Counted from the stretch's first letter, positions 7,818 through 41,223 are shown. The stretch: DNA of 64,000 nucleotides from Spirochaetia bacterium (GCA_963662795.1 OY759746.1:1664001-1728000); one strand, 5' to 3'. The notes: a model not told the origin generated them from the sequence alone. Numbers and translations are program-made.

Positions 7818-8972
7818 ATGAGAAAAAGTCTTATTATCATGCTTGTTCTGCTGCTGACGGCAGGACTGGTATTCGCGGGCGGAAAAAAAGAAGCCGGAAA
7901 GATTGTTCTGATGACAGCTGGAGACACCAACATGCTTGCTATCCAACAGAATGTTTTAGGTCCCCAGTTTGCGGCATTGAACCCCGGCACAGGGCTGATC
8001 TCTGTTCATACCGGCCCGGGAAACGCCGGTTCCCAGAGAATTTATGAAAAACTTCTTGCGGAAAGTGAATCAAAGAAAGAAGTATGGGATATTGATGTGG
8101 CAATTGTTCATGAAATCTTCATGAAATGGGCAATGGACAAAGATCTTCTTCTCCCATACGCAAAAGAGAATGATTCCTGGAAATATGTAACATCGCCTTT
8201 TGCGAAAAATACTCTCGGAGTTAATATTGAAGGTTATGCCATTCCCATGTTCCACAGCCAGACCGCTATAGCCTACAATCCGCAGTTTGTGAAAAACCCG
8301 CCGAAAACCTATGCTGAACTTGAGAAATGGGTTAAAGAGAACCCAGGAAAATTCGGATACAACGGAGTCAAGGGCGGAGCTTCGGGCGTTTCATTTGTTG
8401 TCGGATGGGTTTACTGGAAAACCGGGAGATATGAAAAACTTGCCGTTACAGGTCCTGTAGAGCAGTCGGAAATAGCATCCTGGGAAGGAGCATACAAAGC
8501 TCTTGAGGATTTCAACCAGAATGTTACCTATACTGCCGGTAATGTCGGAACACTTGACGCGCTTAACAGGGGCGAAATATGGATGGGCCCGGTCTGGGTT
8601 GATATGTTTTTTACATTCATGAAGGAAGGAAAACTTAATCCTGAAACAAGAATGATACTTCCTGATCCGGGTATGCCTGGACAGCCGATGTATTATGTAA
8701 TACCAAAAAAAGCCGCCAATCCGGAACTTGCAAAAAAATATATAGCATTCGCAACTTCACCTGAAGTACAGGGAAAGGAAATTGTTGAGAAATTCAACTG
8801 GTATCCCGGTATTGACGGATCTTTCCTTGAAGGAAAAGTTCCGCCGGAAGTCTATAAAAAGATTTACAGTGATGTAACTCCGGCAGATTTGCAGAAAAAA
8901 GGCCTTTCATTTCCGCTTGCTGATTATCACACAGCAATGCTTGAATCATACGAGAAATGGGTCAGGAAATAA
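7818..8972 (+). CDS. ABC transporter solute-binding protein (PotD/YnjB-like cluster); possible inositol-phosphate ligand
   Basis: Signal peptide ending VFAGGKKE; AYNP, PPKTYAEL, NPGKFGYN motifs; GGAGG RBS; followed by two permeases and an ATPase. Confidence 0.85.
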   Translation: MRKSLIIMLVLLLTAGLVFAGGKKEAGKIVLMTAGDTNMLAIQQNVLGPQFAALNPGTGLISVHTGPGNAGSQRIYEKLLAESESKKEVWDIDVAIVHEIFMKWAMDKDLLLPYAKENDSWKYVTSPFAKNTLGVNIEGYAIPMFHSQTAIAYNPQFVKNPPKTYAELEKWVKENPGKFGYNGVKGGASGVSFVVGWVYWKTGRYEKLAVTGPVEQSEIASWEGAYKALEDFNQNVTYTAGNVGTLDALNRGEIWMGPVWVDMFFTFMKEGKLNPETRMILPDPGMPGQPMYYVIPKKAANPELAKKYIAFATSPEVQGKEIVEKFNWYPGIDGSFLEGKVPPEVYKKIYSDVTPADLQKKGLSFPLADYHTAMLESYEKWVRK

Positions 8973-9841
8973 TGGATAGTTCCGTAATCGGAAGGAAGGG
9001 AGCCTTTCGTCTCCCTTCCTATGTATTCCTTCTGTTTCCTGCAGTAGCATTTATTCTTATAATGTACGCTTATCCCTTTATCCTTTCTTTTGTTAAAAGC
9101 TTTGAACTGGACGGGGCTTTTTCTACAGCTAACTACAAAAAAGCTGTTGACCTTTATTATAAGGATATTACTTTTACCTTTCTGGTTACCCTGTTTAACA
9201 GTACTCTCGCGACATTGTTCGGTGTTCTGCTTTCTGTTTATTTCAGGCTGAACGATTCAGTAATTTCACGGACACTTATCAAGCTGTACAGGATTCCGAT
9301 TTTTATTCCGTTTGTTGTTGTTGCCCAGATGATGAACAGCTTCCTTGCTCCCCACGGAATATTGAATCTGTTCCTGGGAAAGGCCGGGCTTGTAAACCTT
9401 GATAATCCATTGCAGCTGTTTAACTTCGCAGGTCTTTCTTTCGGATTTGCATGGAAGCTTATTCCTTTTACCGTGATGATAATATTCGGCGGGTTTCAGA
9501 TGATAGACAACAGCTATATTGAGGCTGCAAGAAGCGCCGGCGCTAAACTGCATCAGATAATCATAAAAATACTTATTCCGATGAACAGTTCAAGCATTCT
9601 TGTCGCGCTTGTGCTTGTCTATTCACAGATTGTCGGCACTTTTACACTGCCCTATATGCTTATAGGGGGTAAAATACCTACAACCATTACTGTTGATATT
9701 GCACACAGGGTTAACTATTACAGGGATTTCGGGGTAGCAAATGCACTCGGGGTCTTTTCCTATATTATGGTTATAATTACCGCGGTTTATTATTTGAAAA
9801 TGAATATGAGGGATGCAAAGATTTCGCATCCCCAGGGCTGA
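8972..9841 (+). CDS. ABC transporter permease (PotB-like)
   Basis: Multiple TM segments, EAA loop YIEAARSAGA; ATG overlaps upstream stop. Confidence 0.88.
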   Translation: MDSSVIGRKGAFRLPSYVFLLFPAVAFILIMYAYPFILSFVKSFELDGAFSTANYKKAVDLYYKDITFTFLVTLFNSTLATLFGVLLSVYFRLNDSVISRTLIKLYRIPIFIPFVVVAQMMNSFLAPHGILNLFLGKAGLVNLDNPLQLFNFAGLSFGFAWKLIPFTVMIIFGGFQMIDNSYIEAARSAGAKLHQIIIKILIPMNSSSILVALVLVYSQIVGTFTLPYMLIGGKIPTTITVDIAHRVNYYRDFGVANALGVFSYIMVIITAVYYLKMNMRDAKISHPQG

Positions 9842-9851
9842 AAGGGAAAAA

Positions 9852-10682
9852 ATGAAGAGTAAAAAATATTATTTCAGATTTTCAATGGACCTGCTTCTGT
9901 TTGTGCTTTCACTATTAATACTTTTCGGGCCTATGTTAAGCCTTGCTCTCTGGTCTGTCGCAGAACAGTGGTACTGGCCCAATCTGCTTCCGCAGAAGGT
10001 GGGTTTTTCTTACTGGGCACAGGCCATGGGCTTGAAAATGAGTTATGCGATAGGAGCTGTAAGCATCGTCCCCGCATTCTTGAGAAGTATCGCAATCGCG
10101 GTTGTAACAGTTGTCATTTCAATGTCGATAGCCATCCCGGCAGGTTATGCCCTTGCCAAATTCAAGGTGCCGTTCGCAAGCCTGCTTCTGCTGCTGTTTC
10201 TGATGCCCAACGCGTTTCCGCAGCAGCCGATATTTGTAAACCTCTTAAGTATTTTTACCAAATGGGGGCTTGCCGGAACTGTTACAGGGGTAATTTTAGT
10301 CCACGTCCTTGTAGGGCTTGTGTACGGGATATGGATAACAAGTTCAACCTTCAAGGCAATACCGAACCATCTTATTGAGGCAGCCCGGAGTGTCGGGGCA
10401 GGCAGCAGAACTGCTTTTCTTAAAATTACACTGCCGCTTGCCGCGCCGGGGCTGCTTGCAAGTTCTGTATTTGTTTTTATAACATCGCTCGATGAATTTA
10501 CAGGAACGTTTTTTATCGGTCTTCCATTTGTAAATACCCTTCCGCTTACGCTTTATTCGGCAAGCGGAACAAACATGCAGTTTGCATCGGTAATAGGGGT
10601 ACTGCTCCTTATACCCAGTATTATATTTATGTCATTGGTCCAGAAGCTTCTTAAGGCAGAATATGTCGGGGGAATGGGTTAA
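9852..10682 (+). CDS. ABC transporter permease (PotC-like)
   Basis: LIEAARSVGA EAA loop, FITSLDEF, TLPL; start 9852 preferred over 9813. Confidence 0.88.
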   Translation: MKSKKYYFRFSMDLLLFVLSLLILFGPMLSLALWSVAEQWYWPNLLPQKVGFSYWAQAMGLKMSYAIGAVSIVPAFLRSIAIAVVTVVISMSIAIPAGYALAKFKVPFASLLLLLFLMPNAFPQQPIFVNLLSIFTKWGLAGTVTGVILVHVLVGLVYGIWITSSTFKAIPNHLIEAARSVGAGSRTAFLKITLPLAAPGLLASSVFVFITSLDEFTGTFFIGLPFVNTLPLTLYSASGTNMQFASVIGVLLLIPSIIFMSLVQKLLKAEYVGGMG

Positions 10683-10700
10683 TGCAATCCGGAGAAAAAA

Positions 10701-11759
10701 ATGTCTGAGCTCAGATTAAAAAATATATATAAAAGTTACGGAAAAACAGCAGTTATAAACGGCCTCAGCCTTGATGTAAAGGACGGGGAGCTTGTTACGC
10801 TTCTCGGACCGTCAGGCTGCGGCAAGACAACAACGCTTCGCTGTGTCACAGGATTTTTAAATCCGGAAAAGGGAGATATTTTTATAGGTGAAAAAAATAT
10901 CACTGAAATTCCTCCGGAGAAAAGGGGGATCGGCCTTGTTTTTCAGAATTACGCACTCTGGCCGCATATGACAATATTTGAAAACCTGGCTTTCGGTCTG
11001 CGGCTGAGAAAAATGAAGGAAGGCGTGATTCAAAAAAAAGTTATGGAAGGACTTTCGATTGTTAAGCTTGAAGCATTCGGGGACAGATATCCGAGGCAGC
11101 TTTCGGGCGGCCAGCAGCAGAGAGTTGCGCTCGCGAGGGCTATTGTGCTTGAACCTGATATTCTTCTCCTTGATGAACCTCTATCCAATCTTGATGCTCT
11201 CCTCAGGGAGCAGATGAGGTTTGAAATCGGACAGATCCATAAAAATTTCAAAATTACAACAATATATGTTACACATGATCAGACAGAGGCAATGGTTATT
11301 TCCGACAGGATAGTTATCCTTAATAAGGGAATAATAATGCAGCAGGGATCTCCGACCGAGGTATATTCAAAACCTGAAAATAAATTTGTCGCAGGGTTCA
11401 TGGGGACAACAAACTTTATTCCGGGAGAAATTTCTGAAACGAGGGGTGAACGCCTTTTAATGACAACAGGGGGAGGCAGAAAACTGCTGTGCAGCGGGCC
11501 GGAAACAGAAAAAGGGAAAAAATGTGAAGCCGCAGTAAGGCCGGAAAACATCTTTTTTTGTCCGTCAGGCGAAACCGGCGAAAATATATTTCCGGCCCTT
11601 GTTACAAGGGCATCCTATACGGGTGACATGATTGATTATGAAATAGAATTCGACGGCATCAGGCTGAGGGCAAGGGGAAGCGTAAAAGAGAGAGCTGAAG
11701 CCGGGGATAAAATCAATATTAAAATTGATCCTGATCACACTCCAGTTCTCTTTGAATAG
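10701..11759 (+). CDS. ABC transporter ATP-binding protein (PotA/MalK-like, TOBE domain)
   Basis: GPSGCGKTT, LSGGQQQRVALARA, LDEPLSNLDA, YVTHDQ. Confidence 0.93.
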   Translation: MSELRLKNIYKSYGKTAVINGLSLDVKDGELVTLLGPSGCGKTTTLRCVTGFLNPEKGDIFIGEKNITEIPPEKRGIGLVFQNYALWPHMTIFENLAFGLRLRKMKEGVIQKKVMEGLSIVKLEAFGDRYPRQLSGGQQQRVALARAIVLEPDILLLDEPLSNLDALLREQMRFEIGQIHKNFKITTIYVTHDQTEAMVISDRIVILNKGIIMQQGSPTEVYSKPENKFVAGFMGTTNFIPGEISETRGERLLMTTGGGRKLLCSGPETEKGKKCEAAVRPENIFFCPSGETGENIFPALVTRASYTGDMIDYEIEFDGIRLRARGSVKERAEAGDKINIKIDPDHTPVLFE

Positions 11760-11764
11760 TTCAT

Positions 11765-12415
11765 ATGTACAGCAACAGCACAACACTCAATTCTCTTGAT
11801 GACATAATAAAAATTTCATATTCCGGGGAGATTGAGAAAATATCCCCGGAAATAGCGCAGCTTTCGGACATCCGGGAAAATGACGGGTTTCACGACAATG
11901 ATCCGGTGCTTGATCATGTTAAGCGTGTTGTGGAAAATATTATTCTGCTTCTGGAAAACAGTCAGCATAAAGGTGATTATTTTAACTCATTTATCGGAAG
12001 CTGCAGAAGAAGGGATCTTCTGGTTGTTTCTGCTGTTTTTCATGATATAGCCAAGGTAAAAGTATTCAGGGAAGATGACGGTATAACATCATGTCCAGGA
12101 CACGAGAGTGCGGGTGTTGAAATGATAAGGGAGTTCTTTGCGGACAGGCTTCCAGGGGACGCGGAACTTGATTATATCCTTCGTGTTGTTGAGGCCCACG
12201 GGATCCCTCATGTTTATCTTAAGCCGGATAACGTAAATATCGACAGGGATTTTGATATGCTTGCAGCAAGGTATTCCGGTATTTACCCCGATCTTCTTCT
12301 TTTTCTGAAAGCTGATGTTGCCGGTTCCCAGCTTGAAGCAAAAAACAGGAAGCTGTTTGATTTTATAAACAATTATCTTGACAAGAGAATTGAATCTTTT
12401 TTCAGCCTGAAATGA
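11765..12415 (+). CDS. HD-domain phosphohydrolase
   Basis: H..HD..H..H..D metal ligands (LDHV, FHDIAK, GHE, AH, AD); last gene of ABC operon 1. Confidence 0.8.
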   Translation: MYSNSTTLNSLDDIIKISYSGEIEKISPEIAQLSDIRENDGFHDNDPVLDHVKRVVENIILLLENSQHKGDYFNSFIGSCRRRDLLVVSAVFHDIAKVKVFREDDGITSCPGHESAGVEMIREFFADRLPGDAELDYILRVVEAHGIPHVYLKPDNVNIDRDFDMLAARYSGIYPDLLLFLKADVAGSQLEAKNRKLFDFINNYLDKRIESFFSLK

Positions 12416-13118
12416 TTTCGAGCAGTTTTTTTACATTTCTTGTAGTTACTGAATAAACACCTGATTTAGCATAAGCCTTCATAAGGCCGATGTCATCAAT
12501 CGTCCAGAGGGAAACCGGTACATATCTTTTCCGGAGTATATCAACAATCTCTGCGTCACAGAAATCAAATCCCATATTAAGGCAGATGCCTCCGGACCTC
12601 CTGTATATATCTGTCAGATAATCTATATAGGATTTTTTATCAGATTTATAAAGCGCAATAACATTTTCAGGGATAAATTCCTCTGAAATGTTAACCATGA
12701 AGCCGGCGTCGGGGTAAAGGGTTTTAAGGGATGCCGCCTGCTGAGCTGTATATCCTGAAAATACGCACCTTCGCTCTGAACCTGTTTTTGCTAATATTCC
12801 CATCACTTCAGCGATACAGCTGAAATCCTTGATGTCCAGGTTTAACTGGATATTCTTCCCGGCTGTTTTTCCAAGTGCATCAGACAGTGAAACAATTCCC
12901 TTTAAATCAGCATAGCCGGTTTCTGCTATTGATTTTACTCCGGTAAAGTATGATGTCTTGTAATAGTTATCGTGGGACAATACCGGAATCCGGTCCTTTG
13001 TAATCCTCACATCAATTTCCGCGGCATCAGCCCCGCAGTCAATTGCGGCAAGAATAAATTCAAGTGAATTAGGTTTTGTATTTTCACATCCTGAGTGTGC
13101 AGTTACAAGCGGTCTCAT
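12402..13118 (-). CDS. Glycerophosphodiester phosphodiesterase (GDPD) family protein
   Basis: TAHSG..PNSL, AEIDVR, LSHD, NLDIK, WTIDD motifs; 3' end overlaps HD gene by 14 bp. Confidence 0.85.
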   Translation of the reverse strand: MRPLVTAHSGCENTKPNSLEFILAAIDCGADAAEIDVRITKDRIPVLSHDNYYKTSYFTGVKSIAETGYADLKGIVSLSDALGKTAGKNIQLNLDIKDFSCIAEVMGILAKTGSERRCVFSGYTAQQAASLKTLYPDAGFMVNISEEFIPENVIALYKSDKKSYIDYLTDIYRRSGGICLNMGFDFCDAEIVDILRKRYVPVSLWTIDDIGLMKAYAKSGVYSVTTRNVKKLLEIISG

Positions 13119-13120
13119 TT

Positions 13121-13990
13121 TTATTTCATTCTTGCAAGGACATCTTCGATAGTCCCTGTAAATCTTCCGGGTTTCTCCATTTTTATGCTTGTAAGGGCTG
13201 CAGCATATCTAACCGCTTCTTCCGGGCCATGGGTAAGGTGTCTCGCAAGATATGACGCAAAACATGTGTCGCCCCGTCCTGTTCTTCCTGAAAGATTTTC
13301 AGGATTAAAGGGAGCCCTGTGGATTTTGCCTTCTGCAAGGACAAGTACTTCTGTGTTATGTGTTACCATTACCTCTTTTGCCCCGAGTTCTGCAAGTATC
13401 CTTGCGGCTTTTTCCCTGTCATCAGTGTCGGTCAGAATCTCGGCTTCAGCCGCGTCTGTTTTGAGAAATGTTATCATTGGAAGATATGTCTTTTTATTAT
13501 CCCAGTCGCGGAAAAGCAGTTTCCCGCCGTCGCTGCATCTTAATAGTCCCTGCGCGTCAATCGCAACAGCCGCTTTTTTTGAAAGGGGGGTAATAAGTGT
13601 TTCCGGCAGCTCATCCCTGAACAGCCCGGCAAGGTGGAATATTTTTGTTTCTTCATCTGGTATGTCTTTTTCTGTAAACGGCTGGGCACTTGAGAGCAGG
13701 GTAACTTTTCTTTTTTCCCTGTCTGCGGAGAGGTAAACATTTTCAATTGATGTTGATAAAGGGGACTCAATTATTTTAAGATCAATATTCTTCCCCCTGA
13801 TATATTCAATATCTTTCCAGTCTTCTCTGGCTGCCTTTGTTACAACCAGGACTTCTGCTCCTGTCTGCGATGCTGATGCTGAAGAATATACCACAGGACC
13901 AGCCGTAAACCTCTGTTCCTCGTTTATATCGGGGTAAATCATTATATCTTTTGAAACATGACCCATCATGATAATGTCATACTTTTTCAT
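13121..13990 (-). CDS. PfkB/ribokinase-family kinase, probable pyrophosphate-dependent myo-inositol kinase (TM0415/IolK-like)
   Basis: GHVSKD, SIEN, DAQG, LKTD, GRTGRGDT, TSIKM motifs recalled from Thermotoga TM0415. Confidence 0.75.
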   Translation of the reverse strand: MKKYDIIMMGHVSKDIMIYPDINEEQRFTAGPVVYSSASASQTGAEVLVVTKAAREDWKDIEYIRGKNIDLKIIESPLSTSIENVYLSADREKRKVTLLSSAQPFTEKDIPDEETKIFHLAGLFRDELPETLITPLSKKAAVAIDAQGLLRCSDGGKLLFRDWDNKKTYLPMITFLKTDAAEAEILTDTDDREKAARILAELGAKEVMVTHNTEVLVLAEGKIHRAPFNPENLSGRTGRGDTCFASYLARHLTHGPEEAVRYAAALTSIKMEKPGRFTGTIEDVLARMK

Positions 13991-14078
13991 AAATGCCTCT
14001 TTTATTTGTTTACTGTTTTCAATGATACATGCAAATATTATTATAGTAAATATTCAATGATTTAAAATGTTAAAATAA

Positions 14079-14092
14079 TGTAACCGCGTACA
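14079..14092. promoter_or_regulatory. LacI-type operator candidate upstream of kinase-GDPD operon
   Basis: TGTAACCGCGTACA, pseudo-palindrome with central CG, similar to the 7774 site. Confidence 0.45.
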
Positions 14093-14163
14093 TGAGCTGC
14101 AGTTTTAAATTTATACAAAATCCAATATACCTGATTTCATAAATTTTCAGTATTCGATTATTA

Positions 14164-14192
14164 TGAAACTTATTTGTCTTTTTTGCATATAT
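14164..14192 (+). promoter_or_regulatory. ECF-sigma-type promoter P1 (autoregulatory candidate)
   Basis: TGAAACTT-N13-G-N2-TATAT, same spacing as P2 at 14853; TGAAAC-N16-CATA vs SigW-type TGAAAC-N16-CGTA. Confidence 0.6.
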
Positions 14193-14264
14193 TCTGATGT
14201 AGAATGGTAAAAGAAAGGATATGTATGAATAAAATTTTTGATCATCAATTATAAAATATATTTT

Positions 14265-14855
14265 ATGGATACAAGTACCCGAATGAATGATGACGAACAG
14301 GATGTTAAAAGTATTCAGGCAGTACTCAATGGAGAGAGGAATGCATTTGCATCAATAGTATCCCGCTATACTCAGGTATTATTTTCCCTGAGTTATCATA
14401 TGACTGGCAACAGAGAAGAAGCCGAGGAAGCTGTTCAGGAAATATTTATTCTTATTTTTAGAAAACTGCATAAATATAATCAGGGAAAACGGTTTTATAC
14501 CTGGATGTTTACGGTTGCTGTAAACTATCTTAAAACACTTGTCAGAAAAAGAAATAGATTCCCGCAGCATCCGGATCAGCGCTTTGATGATTCTTTTCAA
14601 TACGAATTGAATACCCTGCCGGAAAGCACTCCTGAAAATGATTTAATCCGCAGAGAATCCGGAAAAGTTCTCCAGTCCGCCCTTAACCGCCTGCCGCTGA
14701 AGTACAGGGCTGTTTTCATACTCCGGGAAGTCGAGGGAATATCAATAAAAGAGACAGCCTTAATTCTGAGAATCCCTGAAAATACGGTTAAGACATTCAG
14801 CAGACGCGGTAAAGAGGAATTAAAAAAAATCATTGTTTCAATGAACTGGAATTGA
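14265..14855 (+). CDS. ECF (group 4) RNA polymerase sigma factor
   Basis: Region 2 EAEEAVQEIFI...FYTWMFTVAVN; region 4 LPLKYRAVFILREVEGISIKETALILRIPENTVKT; start uncertain (14238/14265/14283). Confidence 0.93.
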   Translation: MDTSTRMNDDEQDVKSIQAVLNGERNAFASIVSRYTQVLFSLSYHMTGNREEAEEAVQEIFILIFRKLHKYNQGKRFYTWMFTVAVNYLKTLVRKRNRFPQHPDQRFDDSFQYELNTLPESTPENDLIRRESGKVLQSALNRLPLKYRAVFILREVEGISIKETALILRIPENTVKTFSRRGKEELKKIIVSMNWN

Positions 14856-14881
14856 AACTTTATCATTTAAAGCGAGTATAT
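14853..14881 (+). promoter_or_regulatory. ECF-sigma-type promoter P2 overlapping the sigma stop codon
   Basis: TGAAACTT-N13-G-N2-TATAT; the TGA of the -35 is the sigma stop codon. Confidence 0.6.
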
Positions 14882-14898
14882 ATATTTAAGGGGTTAAA

Positions 14899-15483
14899 AT
14901 GGAATGTGATAAGGTCAGAAAGATTATTTATGAATATCATAATCTGAAACCGGCATTTCCTGAGATATACAGGGAGCATCTTGATAATTGCATTTCATGC
15001 AGAACTTTTAAAAAAGCATTGGACATGGTTGAAGGCGGCGGCGAATTTAATTTACCGGTCACTGAAGGTCTTGAGGAGAAATGTTTGCGGGGTGTTGATT
15101 CTATCCGCGCAAATTCCCGGGGATTCTTTATAAACCGGACACTTCTGGCCGCGGCAGCTGTTCTTCTTGTGGTTTTAACAGTTTCGATCACGCTGCTGGC
15201 TGTTGGAAATACTGAAAAGTCTGTTGTCGTTTATCTGCAGTTTTATGCCCCTGATGCCGGTGAGGTCGCAGTTGTCGGCGACTGGAACGACTGGGACCCC
15301 GCCTCGGATGTACTTCAGGACAGGGACGGGGACGGAAGATGGGATATCCGAATCAAAGTACAACCCGGAAGGGAATACAGATATCAGTTCCTGATTGACG
15401 GTGAGCAGTGGGTCCCAGACCCGAATGCTCCGATCAGTTTAAATGACGGATTCGGGGGAGAAAACTCAATCCTGAATATTTAG
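14899..15483 (+). CDS. Zinc-binding anti-sigma factor with one TM helix and C-terminal CBM48/AMPK-beta glycogen-binding domain
   Basis: C3 and H27xxxC31xxC34 ZAS motif; hydrophobic aa ~82-103; VAVVGDWNDW...GRW...YRYQFLIDGEQWVPDP...DGFGGENS. Confidence 0.85.
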   Translation: MECDKVRKIIYEYHNLKPAFPEIYREHLDNCISCRTFKKALDMVEGGGEFNLPVTEGLEEKCLRGVDSIRANSRGFFINRTLLAAAAVLLVVLTVSITLLAVGNTEKSVVVYLQFYAPDAGEVAVVGDWNDWDPASDVLQDRDGDGRWDIRIKVQPGREYRYQFLIDGEQWVPDPNAPISLNDGFGGENSILNI

Positions 15484-15513
15484 ATAAATATTATTTTTTA
15501 CAGGAGACAGAAT

Positions 15514-16077
15514 ATGAAAATTAAAAATGCTTTGCTGATTCTGACAGTTCTGCTTTTGCTTGCAGGAAAAATCCCGGCACAGGAAAATGAATTTCCTGAA
15601 AAACTGCAGCTTGAACTTCAGCAGAGAAACTGGAACAGGGAAGAGGTCCGTAATATGATTCAAATATGCCGGACGCTTGATTGGGAAGGGACAAATCCCG
15701 TTCATGCCGAGATATCAGCGCTGGCTTTACAGATGGGATTGGAAAAGAATGAGAATTTAAGTTTAAATGAACAGGCTCAGCTTGCTCTCCATGTCGCACT
15801 CCAGTCAAGAGAAATGGAAAGGGCAGGCCTTTCAGACCGGGAGATCGCAGGTGTTGTAATGCGCAGCACAAGAGAGATGTACCAGGAAATTAACCGCAAC
15901 AGGCATATGTATAATCCGGAAAATATCGGTGAGAATATTGACCAGTGTGTCAAGGCGGCAATACAAAATCAGCTGCGTATATCCAATAGCAACATTGTTC
16001 AGAAGAGGAACGGCAACAGTTCGGATACTTCCGCGTCACTGAACAGCGGAAGCGGAATGAAAAGGAAAAAGCCGTAA
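15514..16077 (+). CDS. Hypothetical secreted, predicted helical protein
   Basis: AGGAG RBS; signal peptide MKIKNALLILTVLLLLAGKIPA; Q/E/N-rich helical body; low-complexity basic tail. Confidence 0.7.
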   Translation: MKIKNALLILTVLLLLAGKIPAQENEFPEKLQLELQQRNWNREEVRNMIQICRTLDWEGTNPVHAEISALALQMGLEKNENLSLNEQAQLALHVALQSREMERAGLSDREIAGVVMRSTREMYQEINRNRHMYNPENIGENIDQCVKAAIQNQLRISNSNIVQKRNGNSSDTSASLNSGSGMKRKKP

Positions 16078-16089
16078 TAAGATAAAATT

Positions 16090-16830
16090 ATGTCAGGAAC
16101 CCTGAAGCATGAAGAGGAACATGAAGTGGCCGGCGGTTTTATAAAAATGCCGGCCATGATTTGTTTCTTATTATTAATTGTGTATTACTCTCCGCAGGCA
16201 GCATGGACTCAGGAGCCGGAAAACAATGTTCTTAATACAGTTGTTGCAATGATGGAAAAATCAGGTTACAGCAGGAGTCTTATGGAGATTATATTGATAC
16301 CCTGCAGAGAAGCTGTTGATAATGGTATCCCGCTGGATTTTATTGAACCGCGTATCCAGGAAGGACTTGTGAAAGATATTTCAGCTCAGGGAATTGCAAA
16401 GGTGGTTCATAATGAAATTTTTCTTTATAGCCAATCCCGGACAGTAATTCAGAATATACAGGGAGCTGAAATATTTATTGAAAGGCATAATCTCTGGAGC
16501 AGAACAGCCAATCTTCTGTCTTCCGGTGTTTCAGTATCTGATATTGAAAAGCTGATTAAAATGACTCTCTCCGTGCCGGAGAATTATAATCAGTCAACCA
16601 GTCTGTACATCAGCCTTACAAAGTGGGGGCTGACAGAAACCCAATCGCTTCAAATTGTAGAGTCTGTTATTGGTTCTTCAATTTCTTCCGCCGAATATAG
16701 TGATTTAACTTCTTTATTTACTAAAGGACGGAGCAGTAATATACCCCCTGAGAAACTCATCAGCAGGATAGTAGATGAGCTTCCTAATGTGAGAACGCTG
16801 AGGCAGCTTGAAAAACGTGTATTACGATAA
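16090..16830 (+). CDS. Hypothetical exported helical-repeat protein
   Basis: Hydrophobic N-terminal segment ending QAAWT; recurring G-(hydrophobic)-S/P helical-hairpin units; start uncertain. Confidence 0.7.
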   Translation: MSGTLKHEEEHEVAGGFIKMPAMICFLLLIVYYSPQAAWTQEPENNVLNTVVAMMEKSGYSRSLMEIILIPCREAVDNGIPLDFIEPRIQEGLVKDISAQGIAKVVHNEIFLYSQSRTVIQNIQGAEIFIERHNLWSRTANLLSSGVSVSDIEKLIKMTLSVPENYNQSTSLYISLTKWGLTETQSLQIVESVIGSSISSAEYSDLTSLFTKGRSSNIPPEKLISRIVDELPNVRTLRQLEKRVLR

Positions 16831-16841
16831 AGGATGTTGTA

Positions 16842-17903
16842 ATGTGCAATAAAATAGTTCTTTTTTTTATCCCTCTCATTCTGACTGTAATGAAAGCAGA
16901 AGCTTATGAACCGTCATATTCTTTTGGAACTTACGGTCAAATAGAGAAATATTCAGATACCGGCGGGGCAGATTATCCGGCGGGAATATCAGCCGATGCA
17001 TTCCAGCGTAATACTCTTCCGTCCGGATATTACTCATGGTACGCCGCGGCACTTTTTGAGTATTATCTGAATGATACTGATAAATACGAAGACAGGGAAA
17101 ATCTTGCAGCCGACCTTCATCTGGAAGGTGATTTATTTGCATATGAAGCAGGTTCTTCTTTAAGTTTTTCATTTAACAGTATTGATTATTCAACATATAT
17201 TCAGCCGGACTGGAGCGCCTCAATCCTTATGAATCCTTATGATTCCCCTTATTCAGCACGTCTGAACTACATCGGTTCCTGGATATATCAGGAGAGTTAT
17301 TTCGAAGACAGAATTATTAACAGGCTGCTGCTCTCGGGTGCATATGATCCGTCACTTGGATTTGGTGTGGAAATTTCCATCGAAGCTGCATTGGAGGATT
17401 ATTCCGAGTATTTTGTACTGGATAATAAAGGCGAAGATACTTCAGAAGAACGCAGGGATTACCTTTTATCAGCAGGTTTGTCCTTTGAGGGTTTGGCCGG
17501 ATATTTTGTCAACTGGAAGTTGTCGTCCAGAATGAAATTCCAGGACTCAAATGCAAACCGATGGCTTGAAACAAATGAACTGGAGAAAGACAGTGAAGAT
17601 TTAAAAAGTTTATTGCTGCAATCTGAAATAAACTGGTCTCCATTTATATCTTTTAAATTCGGGGCAGAATACTTTCTGGAGTATGTAATATATACATACA
17701 GAAAGGCTATTGACGGCAGCGGATTTATTACAGATGATAACCTTGTTGTCGTATACACAGGGGGATCCCTTGATCTTGGATGGACATTTAACAGTTCACT
17801 CTTTTACAATACATCATTTTTGCTGAACAGGGCATATTCATCAGATCCTGAATTTGATGAATGGAACTTCAGCATTAAAGGATGGCTCCAGTATTCATTC
17901 TAA
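16842..17903 (+). CDS. Putative outer-membrane beta-barrel protein
   Basis: Signal peptide ending AEA; Y/F/W/S/D-rich alternating strands; C-terminal beta-signal-like GWLQYSF with terminal Phe. Confidence 0.7.
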   Translation: MCNKIVLFFIPLILTVMKAEAYEPSYSFGTYGQIEKYSDTGGADYPAGISADAFQRNTLPSGYYSWYAAALFEYYLNDTDKYEDRENLAADLHLEGDLFAYEAGSSLSFSFNSIDYSTYIQPDWSASILMNPYDSPYSARLNYIGSWIYQESYFEDRIINRLLLSGAYDPSLGFGVEISIEAALEDYSEYFVLDNKGEDTSEERRDYLLSAGLSFEGLAGYFVNWKLSSRMKFQDSNANRWLETNELEKDSEDLKSLLLQSEINWSPFISFKFGAEYFLEYVIYTYRKAIDGSGFITDDNLVVVYTGGSLDLGWTFNSSLFYNTSFLLNRAYSSDPEFDEWNFSIKGWLQYSF

Positions 17904-18952: not shown

Positions 18953-19195
18953 GTTTTTCTCCTTGCAGTTATCTTTTTCTCCGAATAAAAGATTTAGCAT
19001 TTAACGGAGGAATTGTAAATCAGCTGCGGCAGACTGCTGACATTAAGACTGGTTTTTGTGATAGAATAATTTTATTTTCAAAAATAAAACACTGTATCAT
19101 ACAGGGACTTTGTATTATATTCATTTGTGTTTTTTCAATATTGATTTAATTTTTATTTGATTGGATACTGTTTAAACGCAGATGGAGAGGAAAAT

Positions 19196-20050
19196 ATGGA
19201 ACTTACTTTTCTGGGAACAGGTGCAAGTGAAGGTATTCCGGCATTCAGATGCGTCTGCCCTGTTTGCCGCGAGGCGAGGGAACGGGGAGGCCGGCATATA
19301 AGGCAGAACGCCTCTTTACACCTGCAGTCAGACAGCGGGATAAATGTTCTGATTGACATGCCTCCCCAGATCAAGATGATGCTTGAAAAATACTCTTTAA
19401 GCGATACGGCGCTTGATATTATTCTTTTTACACACTACCACATTGACCATACAGGCGGGATTTTTCATCTTCTTGAGTCGATGCAGGAAAACGGCCATGC
19501 ATCAGGCAGGCCTGTAAGCGTTTACCTGCCTGAAGATTTTTATAAAACCATAATGGACGGAACGTATGCAGACCAGCCTGATATGGGTAAAACTGATTAC
19601 AGGGCATTTTACTCGCTTGAAATTTTACGCAGCCTTGAAAAAATATCGCGCGGTGAGCTTAAAATTTTGGCGCTTGATACGAATCACCTTACCGGCCATC
19701 CTGCCGTCCCCTATAAAAGGGAATGCCACGGCTACCTTTTTACAGAAAACGGTAAGAGCGCAGCTTATATGGTAGACTCATCCGCAACGCTTCCGCCTGC
19801 AACAGTTGAGGCTCTCCTCAGTCAGAACCTTGACTGCCTTATTTATGAATGCACATTTGACCGGTTCCCGGGAAATGGAAGGGGACATAGCGACCATGAG
19901 GGAGTGCTTGGTATCCGCGACCTGCTCAGGCCGGAGAGAATGATCATCACCCACATCAGCCACAGAAATTTCAGCCATGACAGGCTTGCCTCCTTTATGG
20001 AAAAACACGGTATTGAAACTGCTTATGACGGTATGACAGCTGAAATCTAA
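19196..20050 (+). CDS. Metallo-beta-lactamase fold phosphodiesterase, PhnP-like
   Basis: LTFLGTGASEGIP..CVCPVC, THYHIDH, GHS, THISH, AYDGM. Confidence 0.85.
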   Translation: MELTFLGTGASEGIPAFRCVCPVCREARERGGRHIRQNASLHLQSDSGINVLIDMPPQIKMMLEKYSLSDTALDIILFTHYHIDHTGGIFHLLESMQENGHASGRPVSVYLPEDFYKTIMDGTYADQPDMGKTDYRAFYSLEILRSLEKISRGELKILALDTNHLTGHPAVPYKRECHGYLFTENGKSAAYMVDSSATLPPATVEALLSQNLDCLIYECTFDRFPGNGRGHSDHEGVLGIRDLLRPERMIITHISHRNFSHDRLASFMEKHGIETAYDGMTAEI

Positions 20051-20195
20051 TCTGATGACATGAGTCATGTTATTTGTTCATCTGCGTGTGCAGGAATAAA
20101 GTATTAGAATAAAATAATATTCAGTCTTCATCTCTCCTTCAGGGGCTATTAAAATGCTAATTGTCAGATTTTAACTATAAGACAAGGAGCTATTA

Positions 20196-21269
20196 ATGGC
20201 ACGATTAAGGCTGGTTAATATCCATAAACAATTCGGAAACCAGAAGGTCATTGAGGGAATCAGTCTTGACGTGGCAGAAGGTGAATTCCTGACCCTTTTA
20301 GGGCCTTCGGGATGCGGAAAGACGACAACGCTCAAGATAATAGCGGGATTTGTCCAGCCCGATGACGGTGAAATATATTTTGATGATGATCTTGTAAACA
20401 CTGTTCCTCCAAATAAAAGATTTGCCTCAATGTGCTTTCAAACCTACGCGCTTTTCCCTCACATGAGTGTCCGGGACAATGTTGCGTTCGGTCTTAAAAT
20501 GCAGAAAGTAAATGAAGAAGAACAGAAGGAAAGGGTTTTCAGCGCCCTTAAAATTGTCGGACTTGAAAGCCTTGGAGAGAGAAAACCATCACAGCTTTCA
20601 GGCGGACAGCAGCAGCGGGTTGCTCTTGCAAGGGCTATTGTTACAAGACCCAGGATTCTCCTGTTTGATGAACCGCTTTCAAATCTTGATGCGAAACTCA
20701 GGGACAGGGTGCGTGTTGAGATCAGGGAACTCCAGAGGGAACTGGGAATTACAAGCATATACGTAACACACGATCAGGCAGAAGCGCTTGTAATCTCAGA
20801 CAGAATTGTGGTGTTGAATGCCGGAAAGATAGAACAGATAGATGAACCATATGAAATATACCGCAGGCCGGCCAACAGCTTTGTCGCTGATTTCATTGGG
20901 GCCGCAAATATTGGAAAAGGTAAAGTGCTGGAGGTCTTTGAAAAATTATACAGGGTTGAAACGGAATACGGGATTTTTAATATGGAGAAGAATGAAGCGC
21001 TGCCGGACAAGAAAACAGGGGAAAATATTTCTTTTTCATGGCGCCCGGAAGATGTGGAATTTTATAAGGAAGGGGAAACAAACAGGATTGACGGAGTTAT
21101 TGATCAGGCCATATTTATGGGTAACATGACAGACCTTTTCCTGAGTGTTCAGGGTAAAAGACTGCGGGCACAGATGGCAGGCCGGATATATTTAAAAGAG
21201 GCTGAGAAGATTGTAATCAGGGTAGATGAAACTAATTTCCGTATTCTCGGAGGTTCGTCAGATGTCTAG
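20196..21269 (+). CDS. ABC transporter ATP-binding protein (PotA-like)
   Basis: GPSGCGKTT, LSGGQQQRVALARA, FDEPLSNLDAKLR; AAGGAG RBS. Confidence 0.93.
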   Translation: MARLRLVNIHKQFGNQKVIEGISLDVAEGEFLTLLGPSGCGKTTTLKIIAGFVQPDDGEIYFDDDLVNTVPPNKRFASMCFQTYALFPHMSVRDNVAFGLKMQKVNEEEQKERVFSALKIVGLESLGERKPSQLSGGQQQRVALARAIVTRPRILLFDEPLSNLDAKLRDRVRVEIRELQRELGITSIYVTHDQAEALVISDRIVVLNAGKIEQIDEPYEIYRRPANSFVADFIGAANIGKGKVLEVFEKLYRVETEYGIFNMEKNEALPDKKTGENISFSWRPEDVEFYKEGETNRIDGVIDQAIFMGNMTDLFLSVQGKRLRAQMAGRIYLKEAEKIVIRVDETNFRILGGSSDV

Positions 21270-22122
21270 AAAACCTGTCGGTGAAAAGATGAGTAATTTT
21301 CTTTTACTGCTCCCGGGGGCCGGTTTTATTTTTATTTTTCTCTCCTTTGCTTTTCTCCTCACAATTCTTCAAAGTTTCGGCCTTTTTTCCCTGATCGGAG
21401 AATCCCGTTTTACCTTTCGTTACTGGGGTATAATATTTGAACAGGAATTTATAGATTCCTTTCTCTTTTCACTTAAAGTCGGTATCGGAAGCGCTTTCGG
21501 TACACTTTTATTCAGCTATCCTATAGCGCTTTTTTTAAGGAAAAAAGGTTTTGGAAAAAAGACCCTCGGGTCACTCATAAAAATACCGCTTTTTATTCCG
21601 GCCCTTGTCGTAGCTTTTTTAATTGTCAATCTTATCTCTTATCACGGTCTGCTTAATTCCGCACTTGTTGCTGCCGGAATTATTAAGGAACCGTTAAGGC
21701 TGCTTAACGATCAGTTCGGATGGGGTGTTCTCTTTATTCAGATATGGAAAAACATCCCTTTTCAGCTGCTGATAATTTCATCATCCCTTGCCGTTATCAG
21801 GGATGACCTTGAAGACGCGGCGCTCAACCTCGGCGCAAACAAGCTCCAGGTTATAATGCGCATAATAATTCCGCTGTCAATTCCCGGAATTCTGGTTTCT
21901 GTAATACTGGTGTTCATAATGACATTCGGTGATTTTGCAATAACAAAAATTGCAGGCCCGGTATATCCCAACTCCATGAGTGTCCGGATGCTCACGGAAG
22001 CTATAGTGTTCCAGGAGTGGAACAGGGCTGCGGTAATGGGTGTGATTATCATGTCAACAGCTTTGATATTTGTTGCTTTCTATTCAAAGATCGCGAAAGT
22101 TATTCAGGAGAACAAACTGTGA
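21262..22122 (+). CDS. ABC transporter permease
   Basis: TM segments, LEDAALNLGA EAA loop; GGAGG RBS before 21262. Confidence 0.88.
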   Translation: MSRKPVGEKMSNFLLLLPGAGFIFIFLSFAFLLTILQSFGLFSLIGESRFTFRYWGIIFEQEFIDSFLFSLKVGIGSAFGTLLFSYPIALFLRKKGFGKKTLGSLIKIPLFIPALVVAFLIVNLISYHGLLNSALVAAGIIKEPLRLLNDQFGWGVLFIQIWKNIPFQLLIISSSLAVIRDDLEDAALNLGANKLQVIMRIIIPLSIPGILVSVILVFIMTFGDFAITKIAGPVYPNSMSVRMLTEAIVFQEWNRAAVMGVIIMSTALIFVAFYSKIAKVIQENKL

Positions 22123-22970
22123 ATTTAATTACAGAAAGAATATTAAAAAAAAGAAGGCTTTTTTTTGGAATAATTACCGCCTTTTTTATTATCATGCAGC
22201 TTATCTGGATATTCACTCCAGTCATGTTTGCAGTGCTCTGGTCGCTTGTTGATCCTGACCATCCATGGTCATATCCGGACGCTTTTCCAAAAGTGCTCTC
22301 TCTTGCCCAGTGGAAATATGTATTTGATTATACCAATATCATAAGGGCACTGGCGACAAGCTATTCAATTGCTCCGCTGGCATCGCTGCTTGCCTTTATC
22401 CTCGCTCTTCCGACTTCCTATGTCCTCGGGAGAAAAAATTTCGCAGGAAAATCTATTATTTCAAATTTTATTCTCCTTCCCATAATTCTTCCGGGAATGG
22501 TTGTTGCTCTTTTTCTGAGCAGGGTTTTCGCAGTTTTCGGCCTTGCCCAGACCTATGCCGGCCTGGTAATAGGGCACTGCCTGATGGGTATTCCGTTCAT
22601 GATCAGAATATTGACAACAAGCTTCGCTTCCATACCGCAGGATGTGATTGATGCCGCGGAAAACCTGGGTGCGGGAGTATGGGAAAAGATAAGGTATGTT
22701 TTTATCCCCATGGTACTTCCCGGTCTTTTTGCCGGTACTATTTTTACGTTTATTACAAGCCTTGAAGAGTTTAACCTGACCTTTATCATAGGTACTCCGA
22801 CATTCGAGACTGTTCCGACAATACTGTATTCATTCCTCGGATATCATTTTATAAGAACAAACGCCGCTGTTGTCTCCCTTATTCTTATGGTTCCTAATAT
22901 TATCATGCTGCTTCTGGCTGAAAGACTTATGAAAACAGATTACTTGTCTGCTTCACTCGGTAAAATGTGA
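22119..22970 (+). CDS. ABC transporter permease
   Basis: GTG start overlapping upstream TGA with AGGAG RBS; IDAAENLGA EAA loop; FITSLEEF. Confidence 0.88.
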   Translation: MNLITERILKKRRLFFGIITAFFIIMQLIWIFTPVMFAVLWSLVDPDHPWSYPDAFPKVLSLAQWKYVFDYTNIIRALATSYSIAPLASLLAFILALPTSYVLGRKNFAGKSIISNFILLPIILPGMVVALFLSRVFAVFGLAQTYAGLVIGHCLMGIPFMIRILTTSFASIPQDVIDAAENLGAGVWEKIRYVFIPMVLPGLFAGTIFTFITSLEEFNLTFIIGTPTFETVPTILYSFLGYHFIRTNAAVVSLILMVPNIIMLLLAERLMKTDYLSASLGKM

Positions 22971-23059
22971 CAGAGGAGTTTTAATAAATAAACCCGGCAG
23001 AACCTGACCTGGTAAAAAACAGATGTTTTTTGGATATCTGTAAATAATATATGGAGGAA

Positions 23060-24217
23060 ATGATGAAAAAAAGAATTTTTCTTGTGTTAATCGGCATTTT
23101 GCTTTGCAGCCTTGCTTTCGCGGGGGGCTCAAAAGAGAAAGCTTCCGTGGAAAAAGATTACCTGTCCATGTCATGGGACAAAATAATTGAGGAAGCAAAA
23201 GCCGAAGGCGAGCTTGTTTTTTATACCTGGTGGGGAGAAGAACACTGGATAGAAGCAGGCAAGAGTTTTGAGAAAAAATACGGCATCAAAACCAAAATTA
23301 TTGTCGGTGATGCGGCTGCTAACGCAAACAAGGTTGTTGCCGAAGGAAAACAGGAAACAGGGACTATTGATGCGATCATGATCGGCGGCGATTATCTTAA
23401 GCCTGTTATGGACCTTGGTTTGTTTATGAAACCGATAACCAGGGTAATACCTGATGTAGACAAACTTGATCCCAAACTTCTCCAATTTGTTGAAGGGCTT
23501 AAAAATAACGGTGAGCTTATTCCTCTTTACAGAAACCAGACAGGCCTTCTCTATAATCCTGCAAAAGTACCTAATCCGCCGCAGACCTGGGCTGAACTAA
23601 CAGCATGGATAAAGGCAAATCCGAAGAGATTCGGCTTTAACGATCCCTCAAAGGGAGGGTCCGGGCAGTCTTTTGTGCATGCAGCCATTGGTGAGATTAC
23701 AGGAGGTCTTGATCAGTACAGGGGCGATCTTGAAGCAGTACCTGCCAAGATGGAGAGCTGGGGCAAAGTCTGGGACTGGATGAACAGTATGGAAGAATAC
23801 TGGACATATACGACATCCAATAACGATTCCATATCCAGGGTTAATTCGGGCGAATTCTGGATGACAGTAGCCTGGGACGATGATATGCAGGTAAACCTTA
23901 AAAAAGGAAGCCTCTTCAAGGACGCTGTCCTTTATATTCCTGAATTCGGGCTCGCAGGCGGAGGCGACTGCGCGGGTGTGCTTAAAAACGCGAAGCACAA
24001 GGCGGCAGGACTTCTCTTTCTGTCATTTCTCACACAACCTGACCAGCAGCTGTTAATGAATGAAAGGATTGGAAGCTATCTTGCAAGAACAGATGTCAGC
24101 GGAAAAATGCAGCTGCTTCCGGAAGAGCAGAGGCAGAAATACGGAGTACCATGGATTCCTGCTCCCTACAAGAGAGCGTTTATCGACCAGTTTGTAAAAA
24201 ATGTTTTAATGAAATAG
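23060..24217 (+). CDS. ABC transporter solute-binding protein (YnjB/PotD-like)
   Basis: Signal peptide ending AFAGGSKE; WDKIIEEAKAEG, LYNP, PPQTWAEL, NPKRFGFN. Confidence 0.88.
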   Translation: MMKKRIFLVLIGILLCSLAFAGGSKEKASVEKDYLSMSWDKIIEEAKAEGELVFYTWWGEEHWIEAGKSFEKKYGIKTKIIVGDAAANANKVVAEGKQETGTIDAIMIGGDYLKPVMDLGLFMKPITRVIPDVDKLDPKLLQFVEGLKNNGELIPLYRNQTGLLYNPAKVPNPPQTWAELTAWIKANPKRFGFNDPSKGGSGQSFVHAAIGEITGGLDQYRGDLEAVPAKMESWGKVWDWMNSMEEYWTYTTSNNDSISRVNSGEFWMTVAWDDDMQVNLKKGSLFKDAVLYIPEFGLAGGGDCAGVLKNAKHKAAGLLFLSFLTQPDQQLLMNERIGSYLARTDVSGKMQLLPEEQRQKYGVPWIPAPYKRAFIDQFVKNVLMK

Positions 24218-37045: not shown

Positions 37046-37101
37046 AAAACAGTGTCCGGCATTTTTTGTGCCGGCTTTATGAATTAACAGGAGATAAGAT
37101 T

Positions 37102-40211: not shown

Positions 40212-40243
40212 AAAAATATAAGTTTTATAAGGAGAATAGAGTT

Positions 40244-41215: not shown

Positions 41216-41223
41216 GGGAAAAA

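Follow-up and report, generated by a model that had tools for sequence, protein, structure and literature searches.

The subject of this analysis is a five-gene module found in a 64,000-nt stretch of DNA (the window) from a Spirochaetia bacterium (GCA_963662795.1, OY759746.1:1664001-1728000). Labels of homologous sequences likewise place the host among spirochaetes. The genes, designated P1 to P5, encode an extracytoplasmic function (ECF) sigma factor, an anti-sigma factor with a periplasmic domain of the CBM48 (carbohydrate-binding module 48) fold and three exported proteins. Together they are a real, conserved and uncharacterised ECF switch of spirochaetes. We assume, with a probability of roughly 0.55, that the module is an autoregulated envelope switch of the RseB-like type built on a repurposed CBM48 domain. 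Surveillance of the cell envelope is a likelier role for it than starch sensing.

The anti-sigma factor P2 matched the Pfam families CBM_48 and AMPK1_CBM over their cut-offs. Alignment to AMPK-beta2 placed W132, Q163 and W171 of P2 on W100, K126 and W133, and the numbering was checked by counting from the tryptophan. A passage in a review states that the AMPK CBM loses its ability to bind glycogen upon the substitution W100G or K126Q (PMC6274970). In the genome scan, neither lysine nor arginine was found at the K126 site in any of the 68 anti-sigma CBMs, which contained Q (38), N (18), A (6), S (3), M (2) or V (1) there. The same was true for a further 19 of 19 Desulfobacterota anti-sigma CBMs, giving a total of 0/87, and the count was 0/59 when anti-sigmas were defined by an adjacent sigma gene only. 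Among the other CBM48 domains of the same scan, 30 of 35 carried Lys or Arg at this site, which lay outside the homologue search pattern. At least eight residues (Q, N, A, S, M, V, T and L) occupy the site across the anti-sigma CBMs. W132 was present in 69/69 domains of the scan set (a CBM of locus L114, described below, included) and in 19/19 from Desulfobacterota, and W171 was present in 64/69. The variety of residues at the K126 site, while W132 is invariant, points to relaxed constraint. No alpha-glucan enzyme family, GH13 included, was found among the 86 flanking open reading frames (ORFs) scanned of the 113 listed, and no conserved glucan cluster was found among 1564 neighbourhood ORFs; three GH13 matches are present in the host genome, far from the module. 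The anti-sigma CBM48 domain is probably not a glucan binder. A first-pass annotation of the window had named an alpha-glucan as the signal of the module; with the lysine lost in every copy, the sugar face predicted to be occupied by P4 and no glucan family in the scanned flanks, this claim is weakened and unlikely as stated.

CBM48 domains were also found in proteins of other kinds. L114 (1399-5898) is an ECF locus of another type: its anti-sigma lacks a CBM, the CBM is located on a separate exported protein of 437 aa and no P4 was found. The spirochaete proteins encoded at L032 (6152-8176) and L033 (6349-8382), of about 675 aa, begin with a CBM48 and end in a barrel-like part whose last residue is Phe, and the L032 gene adjoins a probable amylase gene. 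It is plausible that these two are true starch-uptake outer-membrane proteins, distinct from the module.

Modeling of the CBM together with mature P4 led to a predicted complex with a score of 0.87, while the best of three controls scored 0.00. Of 157 solved complexes, 116 attained this mark, as did 2 of 215 mismatched pairs; with the custom alignments used, these counts apply only approximately. The runs agreed in at least 90% of contacts, and the pLDDT of the partners was at least 91. In the model, the surest contacts connect W132, D128, R161, D183 and F185 of the CBM with E91, G92 and K95 of P4; W171 is also in the interface. The three P4 residues belong to its invariant motif E91-G92-x-x-K95 (EGxxK), where E91 and K95 are the most conserved residues of the protein (97–98%). 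The signature motif of P4 is predicted to cover the sugar-binding face of the CBM, and, because of this, the aromatic residues would be kept while the lysine would be free to vary. Because P4 is related to no natural protein of solved structure, the model is unlikely to echo a complex that was already solved.

To trace the module in other genomes, species genomes were scanned with an anti-sigma alignment, and the best 80 of the 145 relatives detected were used. In 15 regions taken from relatives, the sigma gene adjoined the anti-sigma gene in 11, and the other four contained unrelated CBM proteins. Local profiles were applied to 45 spirochaete loci with at least 2.7 kb of downstream DNA, a set that includes the window and its close sister, excludes L114 and was grouped partly by the use of P4: P4 was found in 45, P3 in 38, P5 in 37 and all three in 36. 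All five genes occurred together in 30 of the 40 spirochaete loci that also have upstream DNA, which bears out the earlier view of a conserved trans-envelope ECF module whose genes co-occur across genomes. When loci were defined by an adjacent sigma gene only, P4 was present in 54/59, including 49/49 of those with at least 1.5 kb downstream. Outside spirochaetes, the sigma, anti-sigma and P4 genes were found together in Myxococcota, Desulfobacterota, Atribacterota, Gemmatimonadota and Lentisphaerota, and P3 and P5 were not detected in the non-spirochaete loci of the scan except for one P3-like match (L097). A search of 301 genomes of the phylum to which the Deferrisomatales and Thermodesulfobacteriota loci belong supplied 20 Desulfobacterota loci, picked among the matches by long coverage of the anti-sigma model and not by P4; one of them duplicates L092. 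P4 with the EGxxK motif was found in 20/20 of these loci, and a sigma gene was located within the fetched stretch in 19/20. Four Atribacterota loci contain the core without any barrel, and both P3 and P5 are missing from six spirochaete loci. The distribution of the module in Spirochaetota is patchy, with P4 in 18 of 301 sampled genomes. The cultured species Spirochaeta dissipatitropha carries a homologue of the anti-sigma. Judging by gene content, the core consists of three genes, and P3 and P5 are lineage accessories of spirochaetes. Many versions of the core lack the barrel and P3, so that these two form no obligatory relay, and the earlier suggestion that the barrel and the periplasmic proteins relay a glucan to the anti-sigma loses ground.

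Several variants of the locus were observed. Among the Desulfobacterota sample (L147-L166), L075 and L092, several loci are followed by genes of multiheme cytochromes, with Pfam confirmation for L147 and L075. In some of these loci P4 lies between the sigma and anti-sigma genes, with the internal promoter shifted ahead of the anti-sigma gene. A second CBM48 copy without a K126-type lysine is located on a small exported or lipoprotein-type gene in L157, L158, L161 and L163-L166 (7/20 Desulfobacterota loci) and, in L101 (5636-6712), at the C-terminus of a barrel-like protein of the same module; the spirochaete loci have no second copy. This suggests that the second lysine-less copies are candidate competitors for P4, which would be titrated between two sites. 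Other loci contain a single ORF, spanning a stretch of N, that covers both P3 and P4 (L064:3127-4383), a barrel gene and an additional P3 copy on the other strand (L058:3246-8523), cNMP-binding and STAS genes in place of the sigma gene with an extra P3 upstream (L053:5855-7957) or the sigma and anti-sigma in one ORF, possibly as an assembly error (L051:7014-8273). A scan of viral contigs with the anti-sigma gave a single 17-residue match, which was taken as spurious.

A promoter motif with the consensus TGAAAC-N16/17-CGTATA (the part CGTATA taken over 53 sites) was found upstream of the sigma gene in 23/55 loci and at the sigma/anti-sigma junction in 34/59. These sites make up 57 of the 68 motif matches across 1.45 Mb of loci. 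The pattern was derived from the very regions in which it was counted, and control windows were used for this reason: 5 of 900 other upstream windows matched. The whole window contains exactly two matches, at 14164 and 14853, which are an addition to the first-pass annotation. The twin promoters point to autoregulation. A second spirochaete clade has GCAAC instead (11 junctions), and the Desulfobacterota loci have GTAAC or GTGAC with the same GTA -10 element; GTGAC precedes the sigma gene in 3/20 of them (L157, L158 and L162). The coordinates of the module and its elements are listed in the table.

Table. Position and properties of the genes, domains and regulatory elements of the module in the window
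Feature	Position	Strand	Details
AT-rich intergenic region separating the sigma gene from the divergent PfkB gene	13991..14264	.	21.9% GC
Predicted ECF promoter 1	14164..14191	+	TGAAAC, 16 nt, CATATA
P1 (sigma factor)	14265..14855	+	196 aa; in-frame TTG at 14238 is an alternative start
Predicted ECF promoter 2	14853..14880	+	TGAAAC, 16 nt, AGTATA; overlaps the sigma stop codon, ahead of the anti-sigma to P5 genes
P2 (anti-sigma factor)	14899..15483	+	194 aa; ZAS (C3, H27, C31, C34), one transmembrane helix at about residues 82-100, periplasmic CBM48/AMPK-type domain 105-194
CBM48-fold domain, predicted P4 docking site	15211..15480	+	W132 (AMPK W100) and W171 (W133) kept; Q163 replaces K126
P3	15514..16077	+	187 aa
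P4	16090..16830	+	246 aa; Met20 at 16147 may be the true start
P5	16842..17903	+	353 aa

A genome-wide scan for the motif gave no excess over shuffled sequences (27/11/5 real matches versus 21-27/9-12/4-6), and because of this the module itself is the only clear target in the host genome. Scans for sigma-70 promoters and terminators were at or near chance (15 versus 12.6 and 6 versus 3.4). Genes of DUF4382 lipoproteins adjoin 5 of 62 loci (L042:179-1090, L059:10862-11848, L081:5955-6863, L082:6345-7304 and L086:6067-6939). Four of the five are divergent, each with its own copy of the promoter motif, and the DUF4382 lipoproteins at those loci are probable regulon members. The host genome had no DUF4382 match, and a full-text literature search on DUF4382 yielded nothing relevant. 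Before the sigma start, a Shine-Dalgarno-like AAGGA precedes a 9-codon out-of-frame ORF (ATG at 14225, stop ending at 14254; window 14212-14254). The sigma start has no obvious ribosome site of its own, and the sister genome carries a similar short ORF.

The sigma factor P1 matched Pfam Sigma70_r2 and r4_2 over their cut-offs and was attributed to the ECF sigma factors; NCBIfam TIGR02937 also matched over its cut-off, and the best equivalog was SigW, with 134 bits, well under its cut-off of 209. In a quick tree of 78 rows, from which the fused sigma-anti-sigma ORF of L051, an over-long ORF of L098 and weak or partial sigmas were excluded, P1 was located within a spirochaete clade of 32 rows (SH-aLRT 99). 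The Desulfobacterota sigmas with GTGAC promoters formed a separate clade (support 97), and the backbone of the tree was unresolved. Two spirochaete loci (L087:6802-7794 and L096:6841-7806) have a HisKA_2/HATPase histidine kinase gene in place of the sigma gene. The C-terminal tail of this kinase resembles sigma-70 region 4, just under the cut-off (Pfam E 3.6e-4 and 1.6e-5), and its gene lies directly upstream of genes for a ZAS-transmembrane-CBM48 anti-sigma, a P3-like protein, P4 and a protein in the barrel position. In these loci, the anti-sigma sensor may have been rewired to a histidine kinase.

In P2, the ZAS motif was read from the sequence as Cys3 followed by H27xxxC31xxC34. Pfam zf-HC2 did not match P2 and was over the cut-off in its homologues from L087 and L096; HxxxCxxC was present in 52 of 62 full-length homologues, a set which included L114, not a module anti-sigma. 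P2 has a single hydrophobic stretch, with a Kyte-Doolittle peak of 2.78 at residue 82, and all its 194 residues are accounted for by the ZAS, linker, transmembrane and CBM48 parts. A Pfam scan found no RsgI or FecR family match in the module. The first-pass description of an ECF sigma next to an anti-sigma with ZAS, one transmembrane helix and CBM48, in a module containing no FecR, TonB or glycoside hydrolase according to the family scan, is accurate.

P3, P4 and P5 each have an N-terminal hydrophobic leader, and none of them matched a Pfam or NCBIfam family over the cut-off. P3 is an exported, spirochaete-specific accessory protein with a low-complexity tail. No natural solved relative of P3 was found, nor were longer fused forms in the protein database, the latter being weak evidence. 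The assumption that P3 is a paralogue of P4 was unsupported, as profile comparisons gave a probability of at most 4%. The P4 model is all-helical (pLDDT 91.5), and an internal duplication was detected with a probability of 84%. At 50% identity, the P4 family falls into 1670 clusters, and 144 of its members had no Pfam family in common. A Foldseek search with the P4 model gave no match at E<=0.001 and the best VIA match (Z 9.2) was a designed protein, so that no natural solved relative was found; none of the fold searches indicated resemblance to a solute-binding protein. Both P3 and P4 had been annotated earlier as exported helical proteins of no known family: export and novelty hold for the two, and helicity follows from the model for P4. 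The AlphaFold2 model of P5, built on a 13-row alignment, has 16 long strands and a terminal Phe, without a plug, POTRA or CBM (pLDDT 86.7), in agreement with the barrel that had been expected from the gene at 16842. Its best structural matches were unrelated 16-strand barrels tied at Z 18-20 (rmsd about 4 A, 6-12% identity), and because of this tie P5 could be attributed to no single barrel family. The Foldseek list was headed by the cyclodextrin porin CymA (TM-score about 0.45, rmsd 10-12 A). In the nearest Atlas clusters (0.95-0.97), 11-50% of members carried SlipAM or BBP2, neither of which was found by Pfam in the 13 sequences of the P5 alignment. P5 is a predicted outer-membrane barrel and, according to the model, not a TonB-dependent receptor.

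In the mechanism that we propose, the cytoplasmic ZAS domain of the anti-sigma would hold the sigma factor, as is inferred from the family. The periplasmic CBM48-fold domain would no longer be mainly a glucan binder and is predicted to dock the secreted helical P4 through EGxxK over the old sugar face; conservation and constant co-occurrence support the CBM as the docking site of P4. By analogy, P4 in its bound state would protect the anti-sigma against regulated proteolysis. Once P4 is removed, by damage to the envelope or by a binder that competes with it, the anti-sigma would be cut and further processed by RseP-type proteolysis, and the sigma factor would be freed. An M50 (RseP-type) protease is encoded in the host genome. 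The freed sigma, if the motifs are active, would transcribe its own gene and the anti-sigma-P3-P4-P5 unit from the two promoters and, in some relatives, the divergent DUF4382 lipoprotein gene. P3 and the barrel P5 would be spirochaete-specific envelope outputs or inputs rather than parts of the core sensor.

A number of observations weigh against this mechanism. The complex score is a measure of model confidence and is silent on affinity and direction. W132, W171 and F185, the last of which we take to match L146 of AMPK, are kept, and residual glucan binding by the anti-sigma CBM is possible because of this; the invariance of F185-G187 was built into the homologue search pattern. Gln at the K126 site is also found in an alpha-amylase domain (PDB 8xx9/8xxa) and in one CBM that does not belong to an anti-sigma (L114), and the K126Q substitution was made in a eukaryotic domain, its effect being cited here from a passage in a review (PMC6274970). 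The loci are kin, so the counts of lysine loss and co-occurrence are not independent. In addition, no protease gene was found within the module, and the genome-wide regulon was no higher than in shuffled sequences, so that the output gives no clue to the stress.

These points leave room for a competitive glucan sensor, in which a periplasmic alpha-glucan (maltodextrin, cyclodextrin or glycogen fragments) displaces P4 and frees the sigma, and the lost lysine only tunes the affinity. The predicted P4 interface overlaps the sugar face, which would make the two kinds of binding mutually exclusive; both tryptophans are kept, the host genome has GH13 matches elsewhere, CymA tops the Foldseek list of P5, although with the poor superposition noted above, and glycogen sensing was earlier proposed for ECF278s1 in the relevant passage of PMC7826278. 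We nevertheless regard this as rather unlikely, given the loss of the K126 equivalent in 87/87 copies and the negative result for glucan genes in the 86 flanking and 1564 neighbourhood ORFs, and since the co-regulated genes seen were those of DUF4382 lipoproteins, with multiheme cytochromes downstream in several Desulfobacterota loci. The relay of the first-pass annotation, where an alpha-glucan enters through the barrel, is carried or presented by P3 and P4 and acts as the signal when the CBM48 binds it, would agree with the tight linkage of the five genes in 30/40 spirochaete loci, the porin-like model of P5 and the CBM48 family match. It is very improbable, as P3 and P5 were not found in non-spirochaete loci (the P3-like L097 excepted) and both are missing in six spirochaete ones, P4 is unlike any solute-binding protein, the K126 equivalent is lost and no glucan genes were found in the flanks scanned.

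The direction of control could also be reversed. P4 would then be an activating ligand and the module would monitor the export or assembly of surface proteins: P5 would serve as a Slam/BBP2-like translocon for P3 or the DUF4382 lipoprotein, and stalled export would lead to P4 docking and release, as in cell-surface signalling. The complex model by itself is compatible with either direction, the nearest P5 Atlas clusters are partly SlipAM or BBP2 (11-50% of members), and DUF4382 genes adjoin 5/62 loci, four of them with their own promoter copy. Slam barrels have 14 strands, and the P5 model has 16. Moreover, no SlipAM/BBP2 Pfam match was found in the 13 P5 sequences, the host genome has no DUF4382 match and the core occurs without a barrel in the four Atribacterota loci, all of which makes this reading unlikely. 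The RseB-like switch with a docked P4 is preferred here. A bolder extension of it, which we put forward tentatively as possible, is a portable envelope sensor, in which a glycogen-binding fold was turned into a receptor for a dedicated periplasmic P4. The signal would be the amount of free P4, set by periplasmic leakage or by titration on the second lysine-less CBM (on a barrel or lipoprotein, in other phyla), possibly by P3 or P5 here, and several ECF clades, differing in their -35 elements, would have taken up the pair, as would, in two spirochaete loci, a histidine kinase to which a sigma-4 domain is fused.

The module was compared with known systems. The nearest in architecture is ECF278s1 of Desulfovibrio and Syntrophobacter (Casas-Pastor et al. 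2021), where the passage concerned describes an anti-sigma that crosses the membrane once and has an AMPK glycogen-recognition domain in the periplasm, suggests that glycogen is sensed and lists GTGAC/GTATA as the promoter elements (PMC7826278). In common with the module, ECF278s1 has an ECF sigma and, at position +1, a single-pass anti-sigma with a periplasmic AMPK-type domain, and the -10 element GTATA is that of module promoter 2, whereas promoter 1 has CATATA; the -35 element of the module and its clade is TGAAAC instead of GTGAC. The ECF278s1 passage, in which the group is described computationally only, names no P4, P3 or barrel, and its proposal of glycogen sensing is questioned here by the lysine loss and the P4 model (PMC7826278). 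The GTGAC-promoter Desulfobacterota sigmas were equated with ECF278s1 by inference, and membership of the module sigma in ECF278 is not established. No experimental study of the module was found in the open-access full-text literature, a search that did not cover subscription papers. The module is undescribed, as claimed earlier, in this experimental sense, but a sigma/anti-sigma architecture with proposed glycogen sensing is already described computationally in the 2021 passage on ECF278s1 (PMC7826278).

By analogy, the sigmaE-RseA-RseB system of E. coli (ECF02) is most likely the one that the module works like. As far as the passage on ECF02 describes it, the two share a single-pass anti-sigma, a co-encoded periplasmic binder (a prediction only for the module), autoregulation and an RseP-type protease in the genome (PMC7826278). 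However, the module has no RseB/MucB family match, P4 being an all-helical protein of a new family, and no PDZ protease is encoded in its locus; unlike RseA, its anti-sigma combines a ZAS with a folded sensor domain of the CBM48 type. The promoter consensus of SigW is TGAAAC-N16-CGTA, which the module promoter resembles. Like SigW-RsiW of B. subtilis (ECF245), the module has an anti-sigma with ZAS and one transmembrane helix, and SigW is its best NCBIfam equivalog, but, according to its passage in PMC7826278, ECF245 occurs in Bacillales only and its extracytoplasmic domain is a bactofilin. The module differs from SigI-RsgI of Clostridium thermocellum by its ZAS, the lack of a spacer domain, a CBM48 without the key lysine and the lack of a hydrolase regulon. 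The sensors of RsgI are CBMs. In the part of the source concerned, SigI-RsgI resembles the module in having an anti-sigma with an extracytoplasmic domain of the sugar-sensing type and release by regulated intramembrane proteolysis (inferred for the module), while RsgI regulates genes for glycoside hydrolases and its periplasmic domain is autoproteolytic (PMC10328401). Unlike FecI-FecR-FecA with its plugged 22-strand TonB-dependent barrel, the module has no FecR domain, and P5 has 16 strands and no plug. FecI-FecR-FecA likewise combines an ECF sigma, a single-pass anti-sigma and an outer-membrane barrel in one locus. The same combination is found in ECF21 of Bacteroidetes, for which the passage concerned describes no CBM or helical partner and gives the promoter GCAACC/CGTCT (PMC7826278).

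As for the genomic surroundings, the earlier description of five tightly packed co-oriented genes after an AT-rich gap was confirmed: the intergenic distances from P1 to P5 are 43, 30, 12 and 11 nt, and the GC content of the spacer is about half that of the window (41.7%). One DNA sequencing run contains the entire window with no differences and may be its source, whereas nothing from a second run could be placed on it. The module was said to lie inside an inositol region. The window does contain iolG genes at 3211-4221 and 37066-38115 and iolN/iolO/iolM at 40193-43235, but these are 10 kb and about 19-25 kb away, and the genes directly next to the module encode a PfkB kinase, GDPD, an HD protein, a PhnP-like hydrolase and a protein of the AP-endonuclease-2 fold, so that the description holds only loosely. 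Both iolG genes, iolN and iolM exceeded the NCBIfam cut-offs, and the iolO-like gene was under its cut-off. ABC transporter clusters at 7818-13990 and 19157-24217 flank the module, together with GDPD, HD, PfkB and PhnP-like hydrolases, and look like phosphoester or phosphonate uptake units. The direct flanks vary among relatives and are kept only in the closest one, and a tie to inositol or phosphoester metabolism was dropped for this reason.

New here are the five-gene form of spirochaetes, the count of lysine loss in several phyla, the predicted interface at the level of residues and the kinase-coupled variant. They provide a testable mechanism for a widespread and unstudied class of ECF systems, which bear the database label 'isoamylase early set domain' and were once proposed as glycogen sensors. 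If the mechanism is true, this annotation would be corrected and P4 would receive the first function for a large unnamed family. A carbohydrate-binding fold would then have been re-used as a protein receptor in envelope signalling, in spirochaetes and in anaerobes of several other phyla.

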